Shown piece after piece: positions 24,641 to 62,994 of a stretch of 64,000 bases of DNA. This stretch comes from Escherichia phage vB_Eco4M-7. Each line of letters opens with the position of its first letter. The first letter of the stretch is position 1. The notes beneath the pieces are model-generated. The model saw only the letters and a program-made list of their open reading frames with translations, was not told where the DNA came from and did not search any database. The position numbers and the translations under genes are program-made. The stretch lies in sequence record MN176217. The stretch is one strand, 5' to 3'.

Positions 24641-25780
24641 ATGACTCGCATTAGCCAAACACACTCTCGCCTCCCAGCGAGCAAGGTGCGCCCTTTTGAT
24701 ATGCAATCCGTTACTGATGCGGCTGTTTCCCAGCTTGCTCGTATCGGTATTGTGTTTGATTCCGCGATTGTGCGTGATCAGATTGAGCACTTAAACCGTG
24801 CAGGCGCTTTTCGCGTAGGTGACGCCGCGTTTACTGCGCCGCAGACTACTCCGTCAATCCCGACCCCGTTGCAATTCCTGCAGCAGTGGTTGCCTGGCTT
24901 CGTCAAAATCATGACCGCTGCTCGTAAAATCGACGAACTGGTTGGTATTGATACCGTTGGTCAGTGGGAAGATGCAGAAATCGTTCAGGGTATCGTTGAA
25001 CCAGCTGGCACCGCAGTTGAATATGGTGATTTCACCTCTATTCCTCTGGCAAGCTGGAACGTAAACTTTGAACGTCGTTCTATCGTTCGTGGCGAAATGG
25101 GCATGGCAGTTGGTATGCTGGAAGAAGGCCGCGCGTCTGCGATGCGTCTGAACTCCGCAGAAACCAAGCGCCAGCAGGCTGCTGTATCTCTGGAAATCAT
25201 GCGTAACGCAATCGGCTTCTATGGCTGGTACAACGGGAACAACCGTACATTCGGCTTCCTGAATGATCCAAACCTGCCAGCGGCGATGACTTCCAACACC
25301 ACTTCCGGCTGGGCTACTGCGACCTTCCAACAGGTGACTGCAGACATCCGTTTGATGGTTCGTCAAATTCGTGTGAACTCTCAGGACCAGATTGATCCAG
25401 AGAAGGTTGACATGACTCTGGCACTGCCGACCAACTCTATCGATTGGCTGTCCAACACCACTGACTTCGGTATTTCTGTACGTGACTGGATCACCCAGAC
25501 TTATCCGAAGATGAAGATCAAGTCTGCACCGGAACTCAACGGCGCACTTGGCAGCAACCCGACTTTCTTGAACGTGGCATACCTGTACGCTGATCACATT
25601 GATTCCTCAATCGATGGTTCAAGCGATGATGGTTCCGTATTCAGTCAGCTGGTTCAAACCAAGTTCATGACTCTGGGCGTTGAAAAGCGTGCTAAGAGCT
25701 ACGTCGAAGACTACGCAAACGCAACAGCAGGCGTTCTGCTCAAGCGTCCTTTCGCAGTCGTCCGTATGACTGGTATTTAA
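24641..25780 (+). CDS. major capsid protein
   Basis: 379 aa; gene order; strongly optimised codon usage (CTG, CGT, GGT, GAA). Confidence 0.6.
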
Positions 25781-55910: not shown

Positions 55911-56786
55911 CTATTTATTGAAATTAATATTATGGGTGTTGACAAGACGTTCACACATGGCGCTATAAACACCATCGTCGTGTATCGAGTCTTCATGCTT
56001 CAGGCCGCTGATTGCGAAGCGTGTAAGCTTGACAATCTTAAGCTCGAACAGGTGCCACATGTGGTAGTCTTCCGGTGTCTTCAACGTTACGCCATTAGGG
56101 AACAACACCTGCATAACCTGACCTACCATCACAGCGTTATCGCCATAAACGGCATTGCGCTCACGGAAGGTCGCTGCCATCGCATCAAGAATATCAGCAG
56201 CGGTTGCTGGGGCTTGTTGTTCAACTTCAACAAGTTTAGTCTCTTCTTTTCCTGTTGCACTTGGATCAACTGCTAATTGTTGCACCACTTCACCTGCCTT
56301 GCAAAGATTAAATGTAAAGGCGATTTTATTTTGCGCCATGGAATTATAATGCAAAGCTTCTTCTTGCATCCGCGCGAGTACGTCTTGTCTATCTTCAAAT
56401 ACGTTGATTATTCGATAATCGCCGTGTCGCAATACATACGATAACCATGCAGATTTCATAACAGTTGATGGACGCTTGTCGCCATGTTCTCTCATCTTGA
56501 TTGTGAATTCATCAAAAGGGAAAACGTTGTCCAGACGTTCAAAAGTGACTTGTCTGTATTTTTCTGGTCTTGCAGTCCAATATTCAACCGCCTCACCGCG
56601 AAGTGATGCCGTCTCTACTGCTGACGCAATGTTAGGATAGAACTGATCATAACCAATGCCGCTGTGGTAATCATCATAGTCGGACAACGGGCCTGCCACC
56701 CTGATACGGTCTAAGCGCCAACGGTCATCAAACAGAGTTCCGTCAAGGTCGAATACGTTTAAGATTTGGTTATTTTTGATACTCAT
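55911..56786 (-). CDS. HAD-superfamily hydrolase with C-terminal extra domain
   Basis: 291 aa; motif I VFDLDGTLF; C-terminal ~130 aa of unknown type. Confidence 0.55.
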   Translation of the reverse strand: MSIKNNQILNVFDLDGTLFDDRWRLDRIRVAGPLSDYDDYHSGIGYDQFYPNIASAVETASLRGEAVEYWTARPEKYRQVTFERLDNVFPFDEFTIKMREHGDKRPSTVMKSAWLSYVLRHGDYRIINVFEDRQDVLARMQEEALHYNSMAQNKIAFTFNLCKAGEVVQQLAVDPSATGKEETKLVEVEQQAPATAADILDAMAATFRERNAVYGDNAVMVGQVMQVLFPNGVTLKTPEDYHMWHLFELKIVKLTRFAISGLKHEDSIHDDGVYSAMCERLVNTHNINFNK

Positions 56787-57586
56787 CCTTTTGATACTCC
56801 ATCTTTGGCAACTGGATTATTGGTGATTGGCATCGCATCCCAAAACTGGATGCGCAACTCTTCTTGCTGTGCAGTGGTATCCATCCAATCACGATACCAT
56901 GGGCAATGGGCCTTACCGTGACGAGGAAATGCGCACTTACCCATACCGATGCACTGCGGCTGTAGTAAAGGATTGGCCCACGGGTGCACCTTAAGGACTT
57001 CCGCAACCATTGCACGGAATACTTCTTGATACTCGCCTTGAGTACGCGTGCACAAGCGGTTAGAGGCCATTTGTTGTAGAGTGCGCAAGTTGAACTTTGC
57101 CATGATATGCGTTTGCATATTAGAAGGCAACACGGCACGTGCATCTTGAATCTCTGCGCCAGCCGCGCGAAGTTCTTGGTATAGGGCGTCAATGGTTGCC
57201 ATTGCATCATCCCATTTCTCTGCCAGTTCAGCAGCCTTCTCGTCATGACGAGTCCATCCCTTTGGATCATCCTCTGGGTAAGTAAATTTGGCAGGACGAA
57301 TCGCATCAAACGCTGATGACTCTTGAGCGCGGCTTGTGCGTTCTTGATATGCACCTGTTCGTGTGCGCACCATCTGATGAGTCATATTCTTTGATACATC
57401 AGTGATGTCAAAGATATAGTCAACAAAGTCGAAAGGTGACTTGATGGTGTCAAGCATGTAGCGCCAGTGCTCTTGCTTCTCTGATTCTGTCATCTCAGAG
57501 ACGGGCTTGCCAGTCATGCGCGTGTTCTTTGTTTCCAGCAAAAGGTCAAGTGCATCTTGGGTGTATCGAATTAATTCAACTTTCAT
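56783..57586 (-). CDS. ThyX-like protein with divergent active-site motif
   Basis: 267 aa; SPFDFVDYIFDITDVSKNMTHQMVRTRTGAYQERTSR parallels ThyX ...[35 protein letters not shown], with RHR replaced by RTR. Confidence 0.5.
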   Translation of the reverse strand: MKVELIRYTQDALDLLLETKNTRMTGKPVSEMTESEKQEHWRYMLDTIKSPFDFVDYIFDITDVSKNMTHQMVRTRTGAYQERTSRAQESSAFDAIRPAKFTYPEDDPKGWTRHDEKAAELAEKWDDAMATIDALYQELRAAGAEIQDARAVLPSNMQTHIMAKFNLRTLQQMASNRLCTRTQGEYQEVFRAMVAEVLKVHPWANPLLQPQCIGMGKCAFPRHGKAHCPWYRDWMDTTAQQEELRIQFWDAMPITNNPVAKDGVSKG

Positions 57587-57599
57587 TTTAATTATCCTA

Positions 57600-58046
57600 T
57601 TAACGGTAGTTAACTAGTTGCTGATCACCAGAGAAGGTGCAATGATAAACGAATTGTGCGTTATAAAGCAACTGAAAACTTTTCTTTGGTTCATTATTAG
57701 AACTCATTGATGTAAAGATTTCTGCACCAGAACGGTTTTCACCAATAAGGTTTATAAAGCCGCCAGTTGAACGAGGTTGGACGAAAGTGAAACGTTGCAT
57801 CCACGGAGTGCGGTTGGCACCTTTCCCTGTGAATCCCTGAATCTGAATATTCAGACCTTCTTGCTCGTTCACACCGATGTAAGTGGTAATTGTTGCGCCA
57901 GTCGTCGCTGCAGTCTTGCCGTCCATCGCTTCGCAATCGTAAACAGCGATTGAATCGGAAGTACGGACAGCGGCTTCAGTCGCTTCCATATACATGGTTC
58001 CGAGAATAGCAGTTGCGGCAAGCGCGATTCCAGTGATGCGTTTCAT
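57600..58046 (-). CDS. secreted hypothetical protein
   Basis: 148 aa; signal-peptide-like MKRITGIALAATAILGTMYMEATEAA; two Cys. Confidence 0.5.
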   Translation of the reverse strand: MKRITGIALAATAILGTMYMEATEAAVRTSDSIAVYDCEAMDGKTAATTGATITTYIGVNEQEGLNIQIQGFTGKGANRTPWMQRFTFVQPRSTGGFINLIGENRSGAEIFTSMSSNNEPKKSFQLLYNAQFVYHCTFSGDQQLVNYR

Positions 58047-58111
58047 TTTCGTTTCCTCTATGAGTTCTGCTTCAATGATTAAAGTATACGCCCATTGAAG
58101 CAGAAAGCAAA

Positions 58112-59107
58112 TTATTTATTAGCAATATAAGCAAATTTTTGATAGTTATTTGCTTTGATGAGTTTTTCAACTTCAGCAAGGTCATGGGCGACGTCATCAA
58201 GCAAAATGTTTCGCCAAGTAGCGAATCGACCGACACTAAATACGTTCAAATCCATGGTCAGTTGCAGGAGTAGGGCGTGTCGTAAGTCTTTCGGAATGTC
58301 GACAATCTTGCCATACTTCTGGTCGACCTTTTCAACTTCTTCAAGAGCGATGTCACTCCATGAGAGGCCAAAAGCCGTCAACACTTCGTCAACTTCTGCA
58401 CGCAACTTAATGTCACGGTAACGAGTAATGCCGCCAGCGGCTTCAACTGCGGCTTCACTTACGCTAACCAAAGGAATTGTTTCAATGATCAGCGTGTCAC
58501 CAGTGATTGATGCGCGGTAAGTTCTGACGGAGTAGTCAGGAAAGTAAATGGTTTGATACAGTTCACACTTGCGTTTAATCTTAAAGCGGTAAACACGAAT
58601 GTTTGCCTTATCGAATGAGAAATCAATCTTTTGATCAATCCCAGCAAGCTTCATCATGACTGGCAGCGGCGATGTGTTGATGATTGGCGTCTCGCTATAG
58701 CCGCAAAGCGTGTCGACCGGAGTATTAAAGAATATACGGTCACCCAGTTTATCGACAAGCTGATCATAAAAGTCATCAGGCGCAATATAACGCGTTGCAG
58801 TTTTAAGCTTCATGATTGAACGGCTGCCAAACTGATTGGTGACCTTCATGGAATACATATTGGCAAGGTTGATTGGGCAATGGTCGTGATAGTAGTTACC
58901 GCGAAAATACACAGCCTTGTCAACTGTCACGGCCTTAAAAGGGATTCCGGTAATACGGCTTACTTCTTCGCCGCGAAAGCGTAGCAGGGCCTTGTGCTGT
59001 GGCGCTCGCTCCCCTGCTTCGTACACAATAGAGTTCGGGAAGTGACACGCGGTAATAAGTCCTGCCAAACCGCCGCCGATAATCATTACAGGTTGTTTCA
59101 TGTTCAT
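58112..59107 (-). CDS. FAD/NAD(P)-binding oxidoreductase-like protein
   Basis: 331 aa; N-terminal Rossmann motif VMIIGGGLAGL. Confidence 0.55.
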   Translation of the reverse strand: MNMKQPVMIIGGGLAGLITACHFPNSIVYEAGERAPQHKALLRFRGEEVSRITGIPFKAVTVDKAVYFRGNYYHDHCPINLANMYSMKVTNQFGSRSIMKLKTATRYIAPDDFYDQLVDKLGDRIFFNTPVDTLCGYSETPIINTSPLPVMMKLAGIDQKIDFSFDKANIRVYRFKIKRKCELYQTIYFPDYSVRTYRASITGDTLIIETIPLVSVSEAAVEAAGGITRYRDIKLRAEVDEVLTAFGLSWSDIALEEVEKVDQKYGKIVDIPKDLRHALLLQLTMDLNVFSVGRFATWRNILLDDVAHDLAEVEKLIKANNYQKFAYIANK

Positions 59108-59186
59108 TTGTCCTTTGTGGGTGATATGAGAAGTATAATAGCTAAATTATTTTACAGCAACAAGTCATTTCTATTTAGTACAGACG

Positions 59187-59213
59187 AAAAAAGACCCACA
59201 ACAAGTGTGGGTC
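59187..59213 (-). terminator. rho-independent terminator (minus strand)
   Basis: GACCCACA/TGTGGGTC stem preceded on plus strand by A6. Confidence 0.6.
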
Positions 59214-59241
59214 AATTACCGCTATATAACCGTCCTACAGG

Positions 59242-60087
59242 TTATTCCGCTTGATCACCGTCTTCAGCATCGTCGTTGGATTCAACATCGACAAACTCGA
59301 TGTGGCCCATCTCTTCCAGCTTGCTCAGGTAGGAGCGAACAGAAGCGCCAAACAGTTGATCTTTAACTTTTTCGCCCAGCTCATCGATAGACTGTGCCAC
59401 ACCAACTTCGCCTTCTTTGATCGCCGCCAGAACGCGTCCACGGGTGGAATGCTCTTGCGGCTGGCTCAGGCCATTGCCAGTGTAGATGAAGTGAGTGGCT
59501 TTTGCACGACGCTGACCGTTTGCCTTTTTAGCAGCCTTACGTTCTGCGATGGCTTTGCGACGTTCTTCAGCTTCTTTCTTACGCTGTTCTTTCTGCTGTT
59601 CTGCAGCTTCTTTCGCCGCAATCTTAGCAGCTTCACGCTCTGCCTTGCGTTTCGCTTTAGCTTCTTCTTTGGCCTTCTCTTTTTCGGCCTTCGCTGCAGC
59701 ACGGGCTTGATCACGCTCTGCTTTCTTGGCCGCAGCCTGCTCAGCTTTCAGGCGCTTGGCTTCTTCTTTAGCCTTTGCCTTTTCGATTTCTTTTGCTGCT
59801 TTAGCGGCTTCACGCTCTGCTTTCTTGGCAGCAGCCTTTTCTGCACGCTCTTTAGCTTTCTTAGCTGCTTCTTCAGCACGCTTCTGAGCCTTCTCATCAG
59901 CAGCCTGCTTGCGTTTCAGCGCAGCTTCTTCACGCTTGGCTTGTTTTTCCTGCTCACGCTTCTGGCGTTTTTCTTCGGCTTCTTTCTTTTTAGCCAGGCG
60001 TTTTTCTTCAGCCACGCGACGACGTTCTGCTGCGGCTGCTTGTTTTTCTTCTTTAGATAATACTTTGATTGCTTCGGCCATATTCAC
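59242..60087 (-). CDS. Lys/Ala/Glu-rich low-complexity protein with globular C-terminal domain
   Basis: 281 aa; ~200 aa of KAEREAAKAAKE-type repeats. Confidence 0.55.
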   Translation of the reverse strand: MNMAEAIKVLSKEEKQAAAAERRRVAEEKRLAKKKEAEEKRQKREQEKQAKREEAALKRKQAADEKAQKRAEEAAKKAKERAEKAAAKKAEREAAKAAKEIEKAKAKEEAKRLKAEQAAAKKAERDQARAAAKAEKEKAKEEAKAKRKAEREAAKIAAKEAAEQQKEQRKKEAEERRKAIAERKAAKKANGQRRAKATHFIYTGNGLSQPQEHSTRGRVLAAIKEGEVGVAQSIDELGEKVKDQLFGASVRSYLSKLEEMGHIEFVDVESNDDAEDGDQAE

Positions 60088-60240
60088 AGTCCTTAAATAA
60101 ATTAGTTTATTTTATATTCCCCGTTTGGGATAACTTAATTATGCCTTCAGTCGTCGCCAGTAGCAACTAAAAACTATGGCGGCAATGCCACTTTAATTAA
60201 ACTGATTTTCAGTTTTATTTTTCGTAAATTTACGTCAACA

Positions 60241-61425
60241 TTAACGCGCTTTCAAATCACGGTACACGGTCAGATTCTTCTTAGCGCGGGTGATTGCGGT
60301 GTACATCATCTTGGAGTACGGGACGCCGCGCAAGATTTCTTCCAGCACGCACACGTTATCCCACTCGCTGCCTTGCGATTTGTGCACCGTGATTACATAG
60401 CCATAGTCCATCCCGCCAACAGCGCGTTGCGCTTCTTTGCGCACTTCCTGATCAGTAGAGAAGGAAAGAGGATTGATCTTCACCTTTATATCTTTACCAT
60501 CAGTTAATGAACGCAAGTTGACATACATTATTTCATTCGACTCGTCTTCATCCCTTTCAAAGTCCGGCACTGGTTCATAGCTAATAACAATCCCCTGCTC
60601 GCCATTACAGAATCCTGGCCCGTGCTGGTTGAAGGTGCAAATAACTTTCTCGCCGATTCCTGGCATTGGCGTTATACGTCCGCTCACTTGCCGTAATAAT
60701 GAATTCCATTTATCTTTGGTGCTATTATAGGAGCAAATAATTTGATCATCTTCGCCCATGAATTTCTTCAATGCAGTAACGCGCGGCGATTCTGCCAATA
60801 CTTTGACGTCATCGTATTCACGCGGAGGAAGGCGGTTGCCTTGGCGCACGAAGAAGGAGGCGCGGATTATATTGGACTCTTTCCCTTGCCGCATGATTTC
60901 GGTTAACAGCACGTCAACGGCATCTTCAGTAAAGTAGGCGGCGGCTTTTACCGGAGGGACTTGTCCAATGTCGCCTAATGCCAGGACAGGGATGCGGTGA
61001 TCAAGAAGGCGCTCTGTGTCCCACTCGCCAACCATCGACGCTTCATCGAGTACAACAAGGTGCGGCCTTTCATCCAGCTTTGACTTTCTCGAAAAGATTG
61101 GCTCATTGTCGTCATTTACGCCGCGCACGTTATAGATGAACTGGTGAAGGGTCTTAGCGCCACGACAGCCTTTTTGCTTTAATCGGCTTGCAGCCTTTCC
61201 GGTCGGCGCAATATAGATAGCGCCGTACTCACCGACACAGCGGCGCACAATCTCACGAGCAATAGAGGTTTTACCAGTCCCTGCATAGCCAGCAATGAAA
61301 AACACACGCTTCGTCGTTTTACCGTCCTGCAATCGCTTGTACCATGCAACGGCCTTCTCGATGGCATCGATTTGTTGCGCGTTAAACTGAATAACTGGCT
61401 CATCATTAAATTCTGGAATGTTCAT
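60241..61425 (-). CDS. Dda/RecD-like SF1B DNA helicase
   Basis: 394 aa; Walker A GYAGTGKTS, Walker B VVLDEASMV, VHKSQGSEWDNV. Confidence 0.75.
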   Translation of the reverse strand: MNIPEFNDEPVIQFNAQQIDAIEKAVAWYKRLQDGKTTKRVFFIAGYAGTGKTSIAREIVRRCVGEYGAIYIAPTGKAASRLKQKGCRGAKTLHQFIYNVRGVNDDNEPIFSRKSKLDERPHLVVLDEASMVGEWDTERLLDHRIPVLALGDIGQVPPVKAAAYFTEDAVDVLLTEIMRQGKESNIIRASFFVRQGNRLPPREYDDVKVLAESPRVTALKKFMGEDDQIICSYNSTKDKWNSLLRQVSGRITPMPGIGEKVICTFNQHGPGFCNGEQGIVISYEPVPDFERDEDESNEIMYVNLRSLTDGKDIKVKINPLSFSTDQEVRKEAQRAVGGMDYGYVITVHKSQGSEWDNVCVLEEILRGVPYSKMMYTAITRAKKNLTVYRDLKAR

Positions 61426-61751
61426 TATAACTCCACTACGCTGTCAAGGTCCAGATATACTGGAATAAAATGGCAATCTTCTTTTCGTTCAAACATCTCA
61501 CCATCAACATGGCTGAAGAAAACAGTTGTGTTTGGTATCTTCCATCCTTTCTCGTCGCGCACTAAGTACGCCATGGATTCAACAGGGATGTACAGCGATA
61601 CCGGATTTGCGGCAAAAATAAATTTGATTCTGTCTGGTTGACCCAGGAATCGCATGATTGTTAGGCTTGAATTCAATCTTGTATTAAGGAAGGACTCAAC
61701 GATTCCGACGTGTGTTGCACGTTCGCGTTGCTTCGTCTCTTTTTCGTTCAT
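61425..61751 (-). CDS. hypothetical protein
   Basis: ORF track frame 61425..61760; ATG 61751 with AAAGG RBS. Confidence 0.45.
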   Translation of the reverse strand: MNEKETKQRERATHVGIVESFLNTRLNSSLTIMRFLGQPDRIKFIFAANPVSLYIPVESMAYLVRDEKGWKIPNTTVFFSHVDGEMFERKEDCHFIPVYLDLDSVVEL

Positions 61752-61854
61752 TTCAGGCAACCTTTGTTAGTGCGGAAATATTTTTTGATAGTATAATTGC
61801 AGATATAGTATAAAGCAAAGTAAATCGAAATTGTGAACTAAATGGTAAATATTG

Positions 61855-61882
61855 TTGACTTTGTATCACTCAATATTATACT
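61855..61882 (+). promoter_or_regulatory. sigma70-like promoter TTGACT-N16-TATACT
   Basis: -35 61855-61860, -10 61877-61882, in divergent intergenic region. Confidence 0.5.
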
Positions 61883-61911
61883 GCAGGTATTGATCACCGA
61901 AGGAAAGAAAG

Positions 61912-62994
61912 ATGGCTAGTTTAAGAGAAGAAGCAAAAATAATTGAAGAGTTTTTAACAGAACTCCAAAGAGGCATTCCAGAAGATGAGCGCGTCATGAC
62001 GGTGTTTGCTCCTGAAGCAACGGTACAGACCGACGAGCGCGGCAAGAAGATTAACAGCAGCTTCTGGCCTAAGCCTTGGAAGTTGGGCAAGCCGCTCATG
62101 CAGCACCAAAACGGCTATGCTTGCATCAGTTCAATGCGTAAGTCTCCCAACCCAAAGACGGGTGAGATGCGATACTGGCGTACAGAGTCTGCCTTTGGTC
62201 ACGGCATGGCGATGATGGTTGATGACATCGGTCACGGTAAAGGGTCCAAAGGCGATTTAGATTTGGAATTCTTTTTCGAGCGACTGAAGCCGACTGTCAT
62301 CGTCGAGACTTCACCGAACAACCACCAGCTTTGGTACTTCTTTAAAGAACCGATTGGCCATCTTATTCAGTTCAAAGCGTTCCTTGGGTCTTTCGTTAAC
62401 ATGGTACTCAAGAAGGGCGGCGACAACACGATTAAAGACGTAACGCGCGTGGGTCGTGTTCCTGGGTGCATCAATAACAAGCGTGTGACTCACGACGGCC
62501 CCTATAAATATGTCGATGAGAACGGCGACCCGTTCCGCTGCCGACTTGTCCATGCAGACTACTCCTTGCGCTACACCATCGAAGACATTTGTCAGGCATT
62601 TGGCTTTCACGTCGTCATGCCGCAAAAGCGTGAGATTCAAATTGACGTCGATGAATACAAGTATGATGCTGTTTGGTATAAAATAGCCCAGCAGATTCTA
62701 GCGCGCAACAAGATGGGTGAAGGGTCTGATGGCGACGTCATCGAGAATATGTCAGGCAAGTGTCGCATAATCTGTCCTTGGGGTGAAGAGCACACCAACG
62801 GCGACCCGTATGGCGCTTACTTTCGCGGCCCTATCCCTGGTGCAGAACATGAATTTGTGTTCGGTTGCGCCCACGACTGCCACCGGAAAGGGGAAGGCAA
62901 GAAAGGTTGGACTGCTTTTGTTGAAGCAATCGTCATGCCTTATATTGAGAATCAACTTGACATGATAAATCGTCGTGCAGGTGGCATAAAATAG
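61912..62994 (+). CDS. AEP-family primase-polymerase-like protein with Cys/His-rich C-terminus
   Basis: 360 aa; MMVDDIG (DxD), ETSPNNHQLWYFF (S..H), TRVGRVPGCINNKR (R..PG.N.K); CPWGEEH...FGCAHDCH. Confidence 0.5.
   Translation: MASLREEAKIIEEFLTELQRGIPEDERVMTVFAPEATVQTDERGKKINSSFWPKPWKLGKPLMQHQNGYACISSMRKSPNPKTGEMRYWRTESAFGHGMAMMVDDIGHGKGSKGDLDLEFFFERLKPTVIVETSPNNHQLWYFFKEPIGHLIQFKAFLGSFVNMVLKKGGDNTIKDVTRVGRVPGCINNKRVTHDGPYKYVDENGDPFRCRLVHADYSLRYTIEDICQAFGFHVVMPQKREIQIDVDEYKYDAVWYKIAQQILARNKMGEGSDGDVIENMSGKCRIICPWGEEHTNGDPYGAYFRGPIPGAEHEFVFGCAHDCHRKGEGKKGWTAFVEAIVMPYIENQLDMINRRAGGIK

Follow-up and report, generated by a model that had tools for sequence, protein, structure and literature searches.

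A minus-strand gene of Escherichia phage vB_Eco4M-7 (sequence record MN176217), located in the 64,000-nucleotide stretch analysed here (the window), encodes a protein in which a long, two-faced charged rod is joined to a C-terminal module of conserved basic residues and a predicted winged-helix-like domain. We propose, tentatively and at somewhat less than even chances, that the product of this charged-rod gene is an abundant architectural protein of the phage that binds nucleic acid, and we infer its DNA binding, binding geometry and co-packaging from the features described below. The product is named 'hypothetical protein' or 'TolA protein' in databases ('TolA protein' or 'TolA-like' in ECML-117, FEC19, Gekk3-15 and others), and over its whole length it matches phrog_4765, a PHROG of unknown function (E 2.4e-84, 284 bits; residues 1-279 aligned to positions 14-271 of the 294-position profile). 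Across positions 58000-61500, the window shows 100% identity to Escherichia phage vB_Eco4M-7n and 99.8% to vB_EcoM_WFC, and the close matches to this region are Wifcevirus-type coliphages in 28 of 28 cases. The gene and the parts of its product are:

59242..60081, minus strand: coding sequence of 840 nt (279 amino acids and a stop codon); vB_Eco4M-7_83, the equivalent of ECML-117 gp81 and WFC gp071; member of phrog_4765.
59527..60054, minus strand: predicted uninterrupted alpha-helix, residues 10-185 (AlphaFold2); about 26 nm and about 16 degenerate hendecads.
59494..59583, minus strand: Arg ladder (R167, R174, R181) on the last helix turns and basic arm G-x-RR-x-KATH, residues 167-196; from column conservation.
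59290..59493, minus strand: winged-helix-like globular domain, residues 197-264, in the order beta, H1, beta, H2, H3, beta; predicted fold.
59245..59289, minus strand: disordered acidic tail, residues 265-279, DVESNDDAEDGDQAE; from a low predicted local distance difference test score (pLDDT).

The sequence-only reading, an earlier note made without database searches, had described about 200 residues of Lys/Ala/Glu repeats predicted to form a long charged helix. The composition holds, as residues 1-195 are 87% Lys, Arg, Asp, Glu and Ala, with a net charge of +28, no Pro and a first Gly at residue 189. Ala accounts for 30% of the rod, and the 200 residues preceding the domain contain 11 large hydrophobic residues, or 14 if F198, I199 and Y200 are included. 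The helix was also recovered: AlphaFold2, run on a 25-sequence alignment, predicted a single unbroken helix over residues 10-185 (block pLDDT about 65-82 N-terminally and 88-98 over most of the length; mean of 87.9 over the whole protein), for which a rise of 1.5 Å per residue gives the length of about 26 nm. The term 'repeats' does not stand at the DNA level, where the charged region has no true tandem repeat: Tandem Repeats Finder detected nothing beyond a 15-nt array in 2 copies, and a repeat search found only degenerate 30-35-nt copies at a spacing of 99 nt. What recurs is a degenerate 11-residue hendecad periodicity.

This periodicity resides in the charges. The charge power spectrum of the rod peaks at 3.65 residues, with a power of 7.2 against 5.2 for the 99th percentile of shuffle maxima. 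When the sequence is written in rows of 11, positions 0, 3, 7 and 10 carry Lys or Arg in 12, 12, 9 and 10 of 16-17 rows and acidic residues in 2, 0, 0 and 0; Asp and Glu occupy positions 2, 5, 8 and 9. On an 11/3 helix (period of 3.667 residues), the resultant is 0.40 for Lys/Arg and 0.44 for Asp/Glu, the two vectors lie 182 degrees apart, and the stripe phase drifts by less than 40 degrees across 176 residues, while Ala has no preferred face (resultant of about 0, 0.01-0.03). Because the two charge vectors oppose each other with a coherent phase, the rod is two-faced, with a straight and continuous Lys/Arg stripe opposite a straight Asp/Glu stripe. The charged low-complexity region is, thus, an ordered, selected structure and not filler. 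A coiled coil, for which prediction had been suggested as a check, was not borne out: the canonical heptad form was rejected, with only 7 large hydrophobic residues in 177 and no hydrophobic or Ala seam at the 3.5-residue period (the Ala and hydrophobic periodicities of the rod are 3.8-4.0, 6.2 and 11.2).

Across the family, the rod ranges from about 35 to 260 amino acids, a roughly sevenfold variation, and its sequences cannot be aligned between genera. The best charge period of the 18 relatives tested nevertheless falls at 3.66-3.70 residues, with Lys/Arg resultants of 0.27-0.63 and the Asp/Glu vector 132-179 degrees away, and in most family members the spectral peak is higher than the 99th percentile of the shuffle maxima. 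Since the charge period is kept in rods that are otherwise unalignable, the stripe, rather than the sequence, is the selected property of the rod. The net charge of the rod is less constant, spanning 0 to +12 among relatives, apart from a single value of -8; the +25 of the window protein is the most extreme.

The C-terminal module begins on the last turns of the rod. In the 25-sequence alignment, in which 23 sequences have a residue at the R167 and R174 columns, the ladder and arm are basic almost throughout (R167 in 23/23, R174 in 21/23, R181 in 24/25, R191 in 24/25, R192 in 25/25 and K194 in 23/25). The ladder residues R167, R174 and R181 are spaced i, i+7 and i+14, which places them on one face of the helix. 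Three further basic residues in the domain are invariant, namely R214, where helix 1 starts, and R249 and K254, both on helix 3, so that nine positions in total are basic in nearly all 25 sequences; only two are conserved as acidic. In winged helices that bind DNA, helix 3 acts as the recognition helix. Two independent AlphaFold2 predictions, from 8- and 25-sequence alignments, modelled residues 197-264 with a pLDDT of about 90-97, and the predicted topology, three helices and a beta-sheet wing in the order H1, strand, H2, H3, strand, is that of the winged-helix superfamily. RPA32C, kleisin and ScpB are among the fold matches of the domain. Its net charge is -3 and that of the last 19 residues is -9, in agreement with the globular acidic C-terminal part described in the sequence-only reading, which we can now place as a compact predicted fold followed by an acidic tail of 0-37 amino acids across the family.

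Searched on its own, the C-terminal region matched no curated family, DNA-related or otherwise. Pfam, NCBIfam and PDB-sequence searches, using both the single sequence and a 7-sequence profile, returned no match to the domain at E<0.01; the best sub-threshold matches were F1-ATPase gamma and Epsilon antitoxin (E about 0.7) and DUF5805 (E 0.045). Foldseek found nothing significant in the PDB (best E 0.2) and, in BFVD, only family members apart from weak matches. Given the absence of both a significant PDB fold match and a sequence-profile match in Pfam, NCBIfam or the PDB, the models indicate that the domain belongs to an uncatalogued family with a winged-helix-like fold. The weak BFVD matches were A0A0N9SJI4 of Pseudomonas phage POR1 (Foldseek E 0.02, probability 0.98) and A0A0S0N8M4 of PaMx11 (E 0.3, probability 0.35). 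Both are uncharacterised 202-aa proteins of unrelated Pseudomonas siphoviruses, and may be remote relatives with a similar domain.

A tblastn search with the C-terminal 92 amino acids retrieved 356 phage records, 293 of which belong to Pseudomonas phages (Pbunavirus, PB1-like). The other members come from the Wifcevirus group, Serratia phage MTx, Pantoea phage PA1, Burkholderia phage BcepF1, Xanthomonas phage XcP1 and Aeromonas phage Gekk3-15. A word-indexed homologue search gave 3 and then 8 matches, mostly fragments, and an exhaustive HMMER scan of 1.84 billion representatives yielded only 27 clusters, with no cellular relatives among them. Judging from these searches, the family is small and restricted to phages. 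Every full-length member has a segment rich in Lys, Glu and Ala (or Gln) followed by the C-terminal domain; a few of the hits are fragmentary. In many relatives, including P0011, P0016, P0019, P0021 and P0022, the N-terminus is a His-rich stretch (MSHTHHHDAG, MSHGHHNHG, MNQHAHEKHEHHD or MHKHHNHDHN), which may be a metal-binding or partner-binding tip; the N-terminus of the window protein, MAEAIKVLS, is not His-rich. The family was also considered as the Pbunavirus anti-END inhibitor, an identity that was rejected, since the inhibitor is 14-1 gp88 and the charged-rod family corresponds to 14-1 gp67 (ORF66).

The gene is flanked by its own putative expression signals and overlapped by a long open reading frame (ORF) on the opposite strand:

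60090..60094, minus strand: Shine-Dalgarno sequence AAGGA, read from the sequence, 8 nt upstream of the ATG at 60081.
60138..60166, minus strand: sigma-70-like promoter candidate, TTGCTA-17 nt-CATAAT; predicted from a consensus scan and the sequence.
59193..59213, minus strand: predicted intrinsic terminator, an 8-bp stem (5 G-C pairs) followed by a T-run, directly 3' of the gene.
59251..60060, plus strand: antisense ORF of 269 amino acids; not a gene.

The ORF was found at 59242..60087 (minus strand), as listed in the sequence-only reading. Translation almost certainly starts at the ATG at 60081 and not at the listed GTG at 60087, because the Shine-Dalgarno spacing fits the former (a proper 8 nt) and not the latter, which lies only 2 nt past AAGGA, and because the equivalent ATG is the annotated start in every related GenBank record (279 amino acids). 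Four Wifcevirus orthologues show zero length differences, and their substitutions are nearly all synonymous in the minus frame, with a ratio of non-synonymous to synonymous differences per site (pN/pS) of 0.03-0.05. The comparison with FEC19 gave 15 synonymous and 2 non-synonymous changes in this frame (9 and 1 in residues 1-189, 6 and 1 in residues 190-279), against 2 synonymous and 15 non-synonymous codon changes in the antisense frame. The charged-rod gene is, thus, real and under purifying selection, and the 269-aa antisense ORF is spurious, as had been suspected. It stays open because TTA, CTA and TCA are nearly absent as sense codons from the gene, which contains a single one (TTA, residue 8).

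Codon usage points to strong expression. Among the 57 window ORFs of at least 120 amino acids, scored with a set of optimal codons, the charged-rod gene has the highest fraction of E. coli-preferred codons, 0.751 (median of 0.525), a value equal to that of the 379-aa capsid gene at 24641-25780. All of its Arg codons (25 of 25) are CGT or CGC. The promoter candidate lies in the 153-nt gap that separates the helicase gene from the charged-rod gene. A terminator is annotated at the same place in WFC, with equivalents annotated in LMA2, MTx and XcP1. In view of its codon usage and of its own promoter-like site and terminator, the gene is probably very highly expressed.

The protein is also found with virions. 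Necel et al. analysed caesium chloride (CsCl)-purified vB_Eco4M-7 and ECML-117 by liquid chromatography-tandem mass spectrometry (PMC7048862). In vB_Eco4M-7, the product of gene 83 ('TolA protein', 31.1 kDa) was represented by 7 peptides with 25.8% coverage and a score of 1197.6, the 7th of 33, above those of the portal (1112), the capsid/scaffold (936) and the sheath (891); ECML-117 gp81 was detected with 2 peptides (PMC7048862). The coverage of 26% would be close to the whole of the detectable C-terminal third, as the rod is expected to be reduced to very short peptides by trypsin. For the LMA2 orthologue (ORF66), the annotation reads 'putative structural protein; putative cell wall associated protein'. 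The same virions contained, at high scores (518-718), the products of vB_Eco4M-7 genes 70, 71 and 77, two unknown-function proteins (31.2 and 20.7 kDa) and one of the glyoxalase family, all encoded outside the morphogenesis module and with counterparts detected in ECML-117 as well (PMC7048862). Either several non-structural proteins are packaged, or these are abundant contaminants of the preparations. A mass spectrometry dataset of phage K8 was set aside as irrelevant, since this phage belongs to a different genus. We found no functional study of the charged-rod family in the literature searched; the BASEL, JG024, KTN6 and 14-1 ONT-cappable-seq papers are silent on the protein, and the published HiBiT tagging of vB_Eco4M-7 did not include its gene.

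In every genome examined (Wifcevirus, Pbunavirus, BcepF1, MTx, XcP1 and Gekk3-15), the gene directly follows the Dda-like helicase gene, and an intrinsic terminator lies 3' of it. The helicase neighbour named in the sequence-only reading was recognised as Dda/RecD-like (Pfam AAA_30, E 2e-22). In a 68-kb metagenomic contig, the gene lies between helicase and DnaQ/DnaE polymerase genes, with no ThyX cluster at that place. Because this relative keeps the helicase and polymerase neighbours without the ThyX cluster, the stable linkage of the gene is to the replication core. The genomic surroundings of the divergent member P0007 added nothing to this picture.

A nucleic-acid-binding architectural protein is the reading that these observations support best. 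The Arg ladder, the RR-x-KATH arm and the winged-helix domain with its helix-3 Arg and Lys would form a compact binding module that anchors the protein on DNA, and the continuous Lys/Arg stripe of the rigid helix, about 26 nm long, would follow the polyanion. The Asp/Glu stripe would face outward together with the acidic tail, where both could provide solubility, modulate binding or contact neighbouring molecules, and protein bound to phage DNA could be carried into the capsid or remain stuck to particles. Association with DNA would explain both the position of the gene in the replication module and the co-purification of its product with virions. The sequence-only reading had raised the possibility of a nucleoid or DNA-coating protein, an idea that receives partial support from the conserved basic positions, the Lys/Arg stripe, the adjacency to the helicase and the abundance in virions. 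A more ambitious version, which we consider unlikely, is that the family is a previously unrecognised phage 'chromatin' protein: an Arg-ladder/winged-helix anchor carrying a Janus helix of 20-40 nm, with the basic stripe lying on hypermodified DNA and the acidic stripes zipping rods together into a cooperative coat that is packaged and delivered with the genome. If so, the coat could protect or organise phage DNA in the first moments of infection by Pbunavirus, Wifcevirus and their relatives.

Several observations weigh against a DNA-binding role. The vB_Eco4M-7 virion sample also held a glyoxalase-family protein and a trace of helicase (PMC7048862). Since non-structural proteins were present, the co-purification could be that of an abundant, sticky protein. 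The virion mass spectrometry list of the Pbunavirus SCUT-S1 lacks the presumed orthologue ORF69, which adjoins the helicase ORF70, and the cryo-electron microscopy papers on E217 and Pa193 make no mention of such a protein. The rod is near charge-balanced in most relatives (0 to +12 and, in one, -8, as given above), the acidic stripe opposes the basic one, which does not fit a simple histone-like electrostatic coat, and the winged-helix domain is approximately neutral and followed by an acidic tail. Winged-helix domains, moreover, often serve as protein-binding modules. Owing to the near-neutral rods, the acidic stripe and the protein-binding winged helices, two rival explanations stay alive.

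One of them, which we regard as somewhat improbable, is that the protein is a spacer or adaptor whose ligand is not DNA. The winged helix, as in RPA32C, kleisin and ScpB, would dock on a replisome or virion partner, for example the Dda-like helicase, and the rod would act as a ruler holding its tip 20-30 nm away. The strict adjacency to the helicase gene is in line with this, as is the rod itself, which, like ER/K helices, is a polyampholyte of nearly balanced charge and contains very few hydrophobic residues; the rod has a fixed length within Wifcevirus (pN/pS of about 0.03). Between genera, however, this length varies about 7-fold (35 to about 260 amino acids), which is odd for a ruler, and what the family keeps is the straight basic stripe and not the length. 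Also in favour, acidic tails mediate partner binding in phage proteins of the single-stranded DNA-binding (SSB) type, such as T7 gp2.5 and T4 gp32. Against it, a polyanion would be a more suitable ligand than a protein surface for the conserved Arg ladder and arm. Capsid-like codon usage, together with a monocistronic unit, also suggests stoichiometric abundance rather than a replisome accessory.

The other explanation, to which we assign a distinctly low probability, is a self-assembling internal or ejected virion protein, packaged and possibly injected like the internal proteins of T4 and P1, in which the stripes would act as a lateral 'charge zipper' arranging the rods in sheets or bundles. 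Basic and acidic stripes 132-179 degrees apart do favour open-ended lateral association over a closed coiled coil. The protein scored high in CsCl-purified virions and was detected in two phages (PMC7048862), yet it is absent from the SCUT-S1 virion list, and neither density nor mention of it appears in the E217 and Pa193 reconstructions. The Pbunavirus annotation reads 'structural protein', and the E217 authors call the ejection proteins of these myoviruses unidentified; the gene, however, lies in the replication module and not in the morphogenesis module, and the conserved winged-helix and Arg-ladder module would be left unexplained.

That the protein is a TolA homologue, an envelope-spanning protein connecting the inner and outer membranes as the GenBank names imply, can practically be dismissed. 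The likeness to TolA domain II, a long Lys/Ala/Glu-rich helical segment, is compositional only, and with E. coli MG1655 TolA as a control, the blastp match (E 1e-32 uncorrected) disappeared once SEG masking and composition correction were applied. By Kyte-Doolittle hydropathy, the window protein has no membrane anchor equivalent to TolA domain I (maximum 19-residue mean of 0.61, against 2.45 at residue 14 of TolA). It has no Pfam or NCBIfam match to TolA domain III, and its C-terminal fold is predicted to be a winged helix instead. The charge period also differs, being 7.2 residues in TolA domain II, which has no 3.67-residue stripe, against 3.65 in the window rod. The TolA identity was, therefore, rejected, and the name is a compositional artefact.

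Other systems resemble the charged-rod protein in part. Linker histones H1/H5 likewise join a small winged-helix domain to a long Lys/Ala-rich extension and are abundant and non-enzymatic, although a DNA-organising role is only proposed here. Their extension is a C-terminal, disordered and strongly basic tail, whereas that of the phage protein is N-terminal, predicted to be a stable helix and mixed in charge, with an acidic stripe, a net charge of about +0.13 per residue (near 0 in relatives) and an acidic tail after the domain. No Pfam match to linker histones (PF00538) was found, and the Foldseek comparison with the globular domain of yeast Hho1p gave an E of 3.3 and a probability of 0.14. 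Charged single alpha-helices (CSAH, ER/K), such as those of myosin VI, myosin X and caldesmon, share the high content of Lys, Arg, Glu, Asp and Ala (about 85%), the absence of Gly and Pro, the near lack of a hydrophobic seam and the prediction of a single long helix for the monomer. Their typical pattern is an alternation of 7-9 residues that wraps salt bridges around the helix, in contrast to the 3.67-residue (11/3) period that gives the phage rod segregated straight stripes; 30% Ala is atypical as well. Glu follows Lys at i+4 in 23 instances in the window rod (14 +/- 2.8 in shuffles), and opposite-charge pairs at i+4 or i+3 reach a z of about 2 in the window protein, with variable values among relatives; some of these show the enrichment too, but the family as a whole does not.

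A parallel to the stripes is offered by 11-residue-repeat helices (group 3 late embryogenesis abundant (LEA) proteins, apolipoproteins and alpha-synuclein), with degenerate Lys/Glu/Ala-rich hendecads. Group 3 LEA proteins have a hendecad periodicity with longitudinal stripes on an 11/3 helix. Unlike these helices, the phage rod lacks an apolar face, its would-be core positions carrying Lys and Arg, and Pfam LEA_4 did not match the window protein at E<=10. Phage phi29 p6 and SPO1 TF1 are comparable as abundant non-enzymatic products, the charged-rod gene itself lying in the replication module, but the folds are unrelated (p6 has a fold of its own and TF1 is HU-like), and neither has a long charged rod or is reported in virions. 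SPO1 TF1 prefers hydroxymethyluracil DNA. As hypermodified thymidine occurs in relatives of the phage studied here (PMC12191111), a dedicated phage DNA-binding protein would have a precedent.

The protein is conserved in 356 sequenced phages, including the fast-replicating Wifcevirus coliphages and the Pbunavirus (PB1-like) group, which counts among the Pseudomonas phages that therapy uses most (PMC11990801). Judged by its codon usage and by mass spectrometry, the protein seems to rank with the most abundant products of the phage, and yet this virion-co-purifying protein is still labelled hypothetical, 'TolA' or 'structural'. The family was already catalogued as phrog_4765, and both the winged helix and the charged single helix are known kinds of part. 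New here are the removal of the misleading TolA name and the recasting of a low-complexity region as a two-faced charged rod; as far as we found, there is no earlier description of a two-faced 11/3 stripe that is kept throughout a family and attached to a new kind of winged-helix domain. The conserved basic module, with its predicted winged-helix fold, provides a direct and cheap experimental handle. If DNA binding proves true, it would represent a new architecture for a viral DNA-organising protein, and might connect to the thymidine hypermodification reported for these phages (PMC12191111).

On its other side, the charged-rod gene is adjoined by 58112-59107 (minus strand), which had been read as an FAD-binding gene. 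An N-terminal GxGxxG motif (MIIGGGLAGL) is indeed present, but no Pfam, NCBIfam or PDB sequence match backs the assignment; the product matches phrog_4828, of unknown function (E 2e-148). This gene is part of a syntenic cluster, covering 55911-59107 (minus strand) of the window with upstream genes as in WFC gp066-gp070, that is kept from Wifcevirus to Pbunavirus, MTx, XcP1 and Gekk3-15. It contains the Rossmann-like phrog_4828 protein, a 148-aa protein, a ThyX-like enzyme, a HAD/PNKP-like protein, a FabG-like reductase and a glyoxalase-family protein. A 2025 preprint (PMC12191111) reports a sugar-derived hypermodified thymidine in Pbunavirus DNA and names no responsible genes. The ThyX-like/FabG-like cluster is an obvious candidate pathway for this hypermodification, and Wifcevirus DNA may be modified too.

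The 148-aa ORF of this cluster (57600-58046, minus strand) has no Pfam, PHROGs or NCBIfam match. It has a signal-peptide-like N-terminus, MKRITGIALAATAILGTMYMEA, and a nucleotide-metabolism cluster is an odd place for an exported protein. Further along the window, positions 61761-61911 separate two divergent genes, 61425-61760 (minus strand) and 61912-62994 (plus strand, a RepB-type primase), and the G+C content of 61500-61999, 0.386, is the lowest in that part of the window. The 61761-61911 interval, between the helicase operon and the RepB-type primase gene, could hold divergent promoters or a replication origin.

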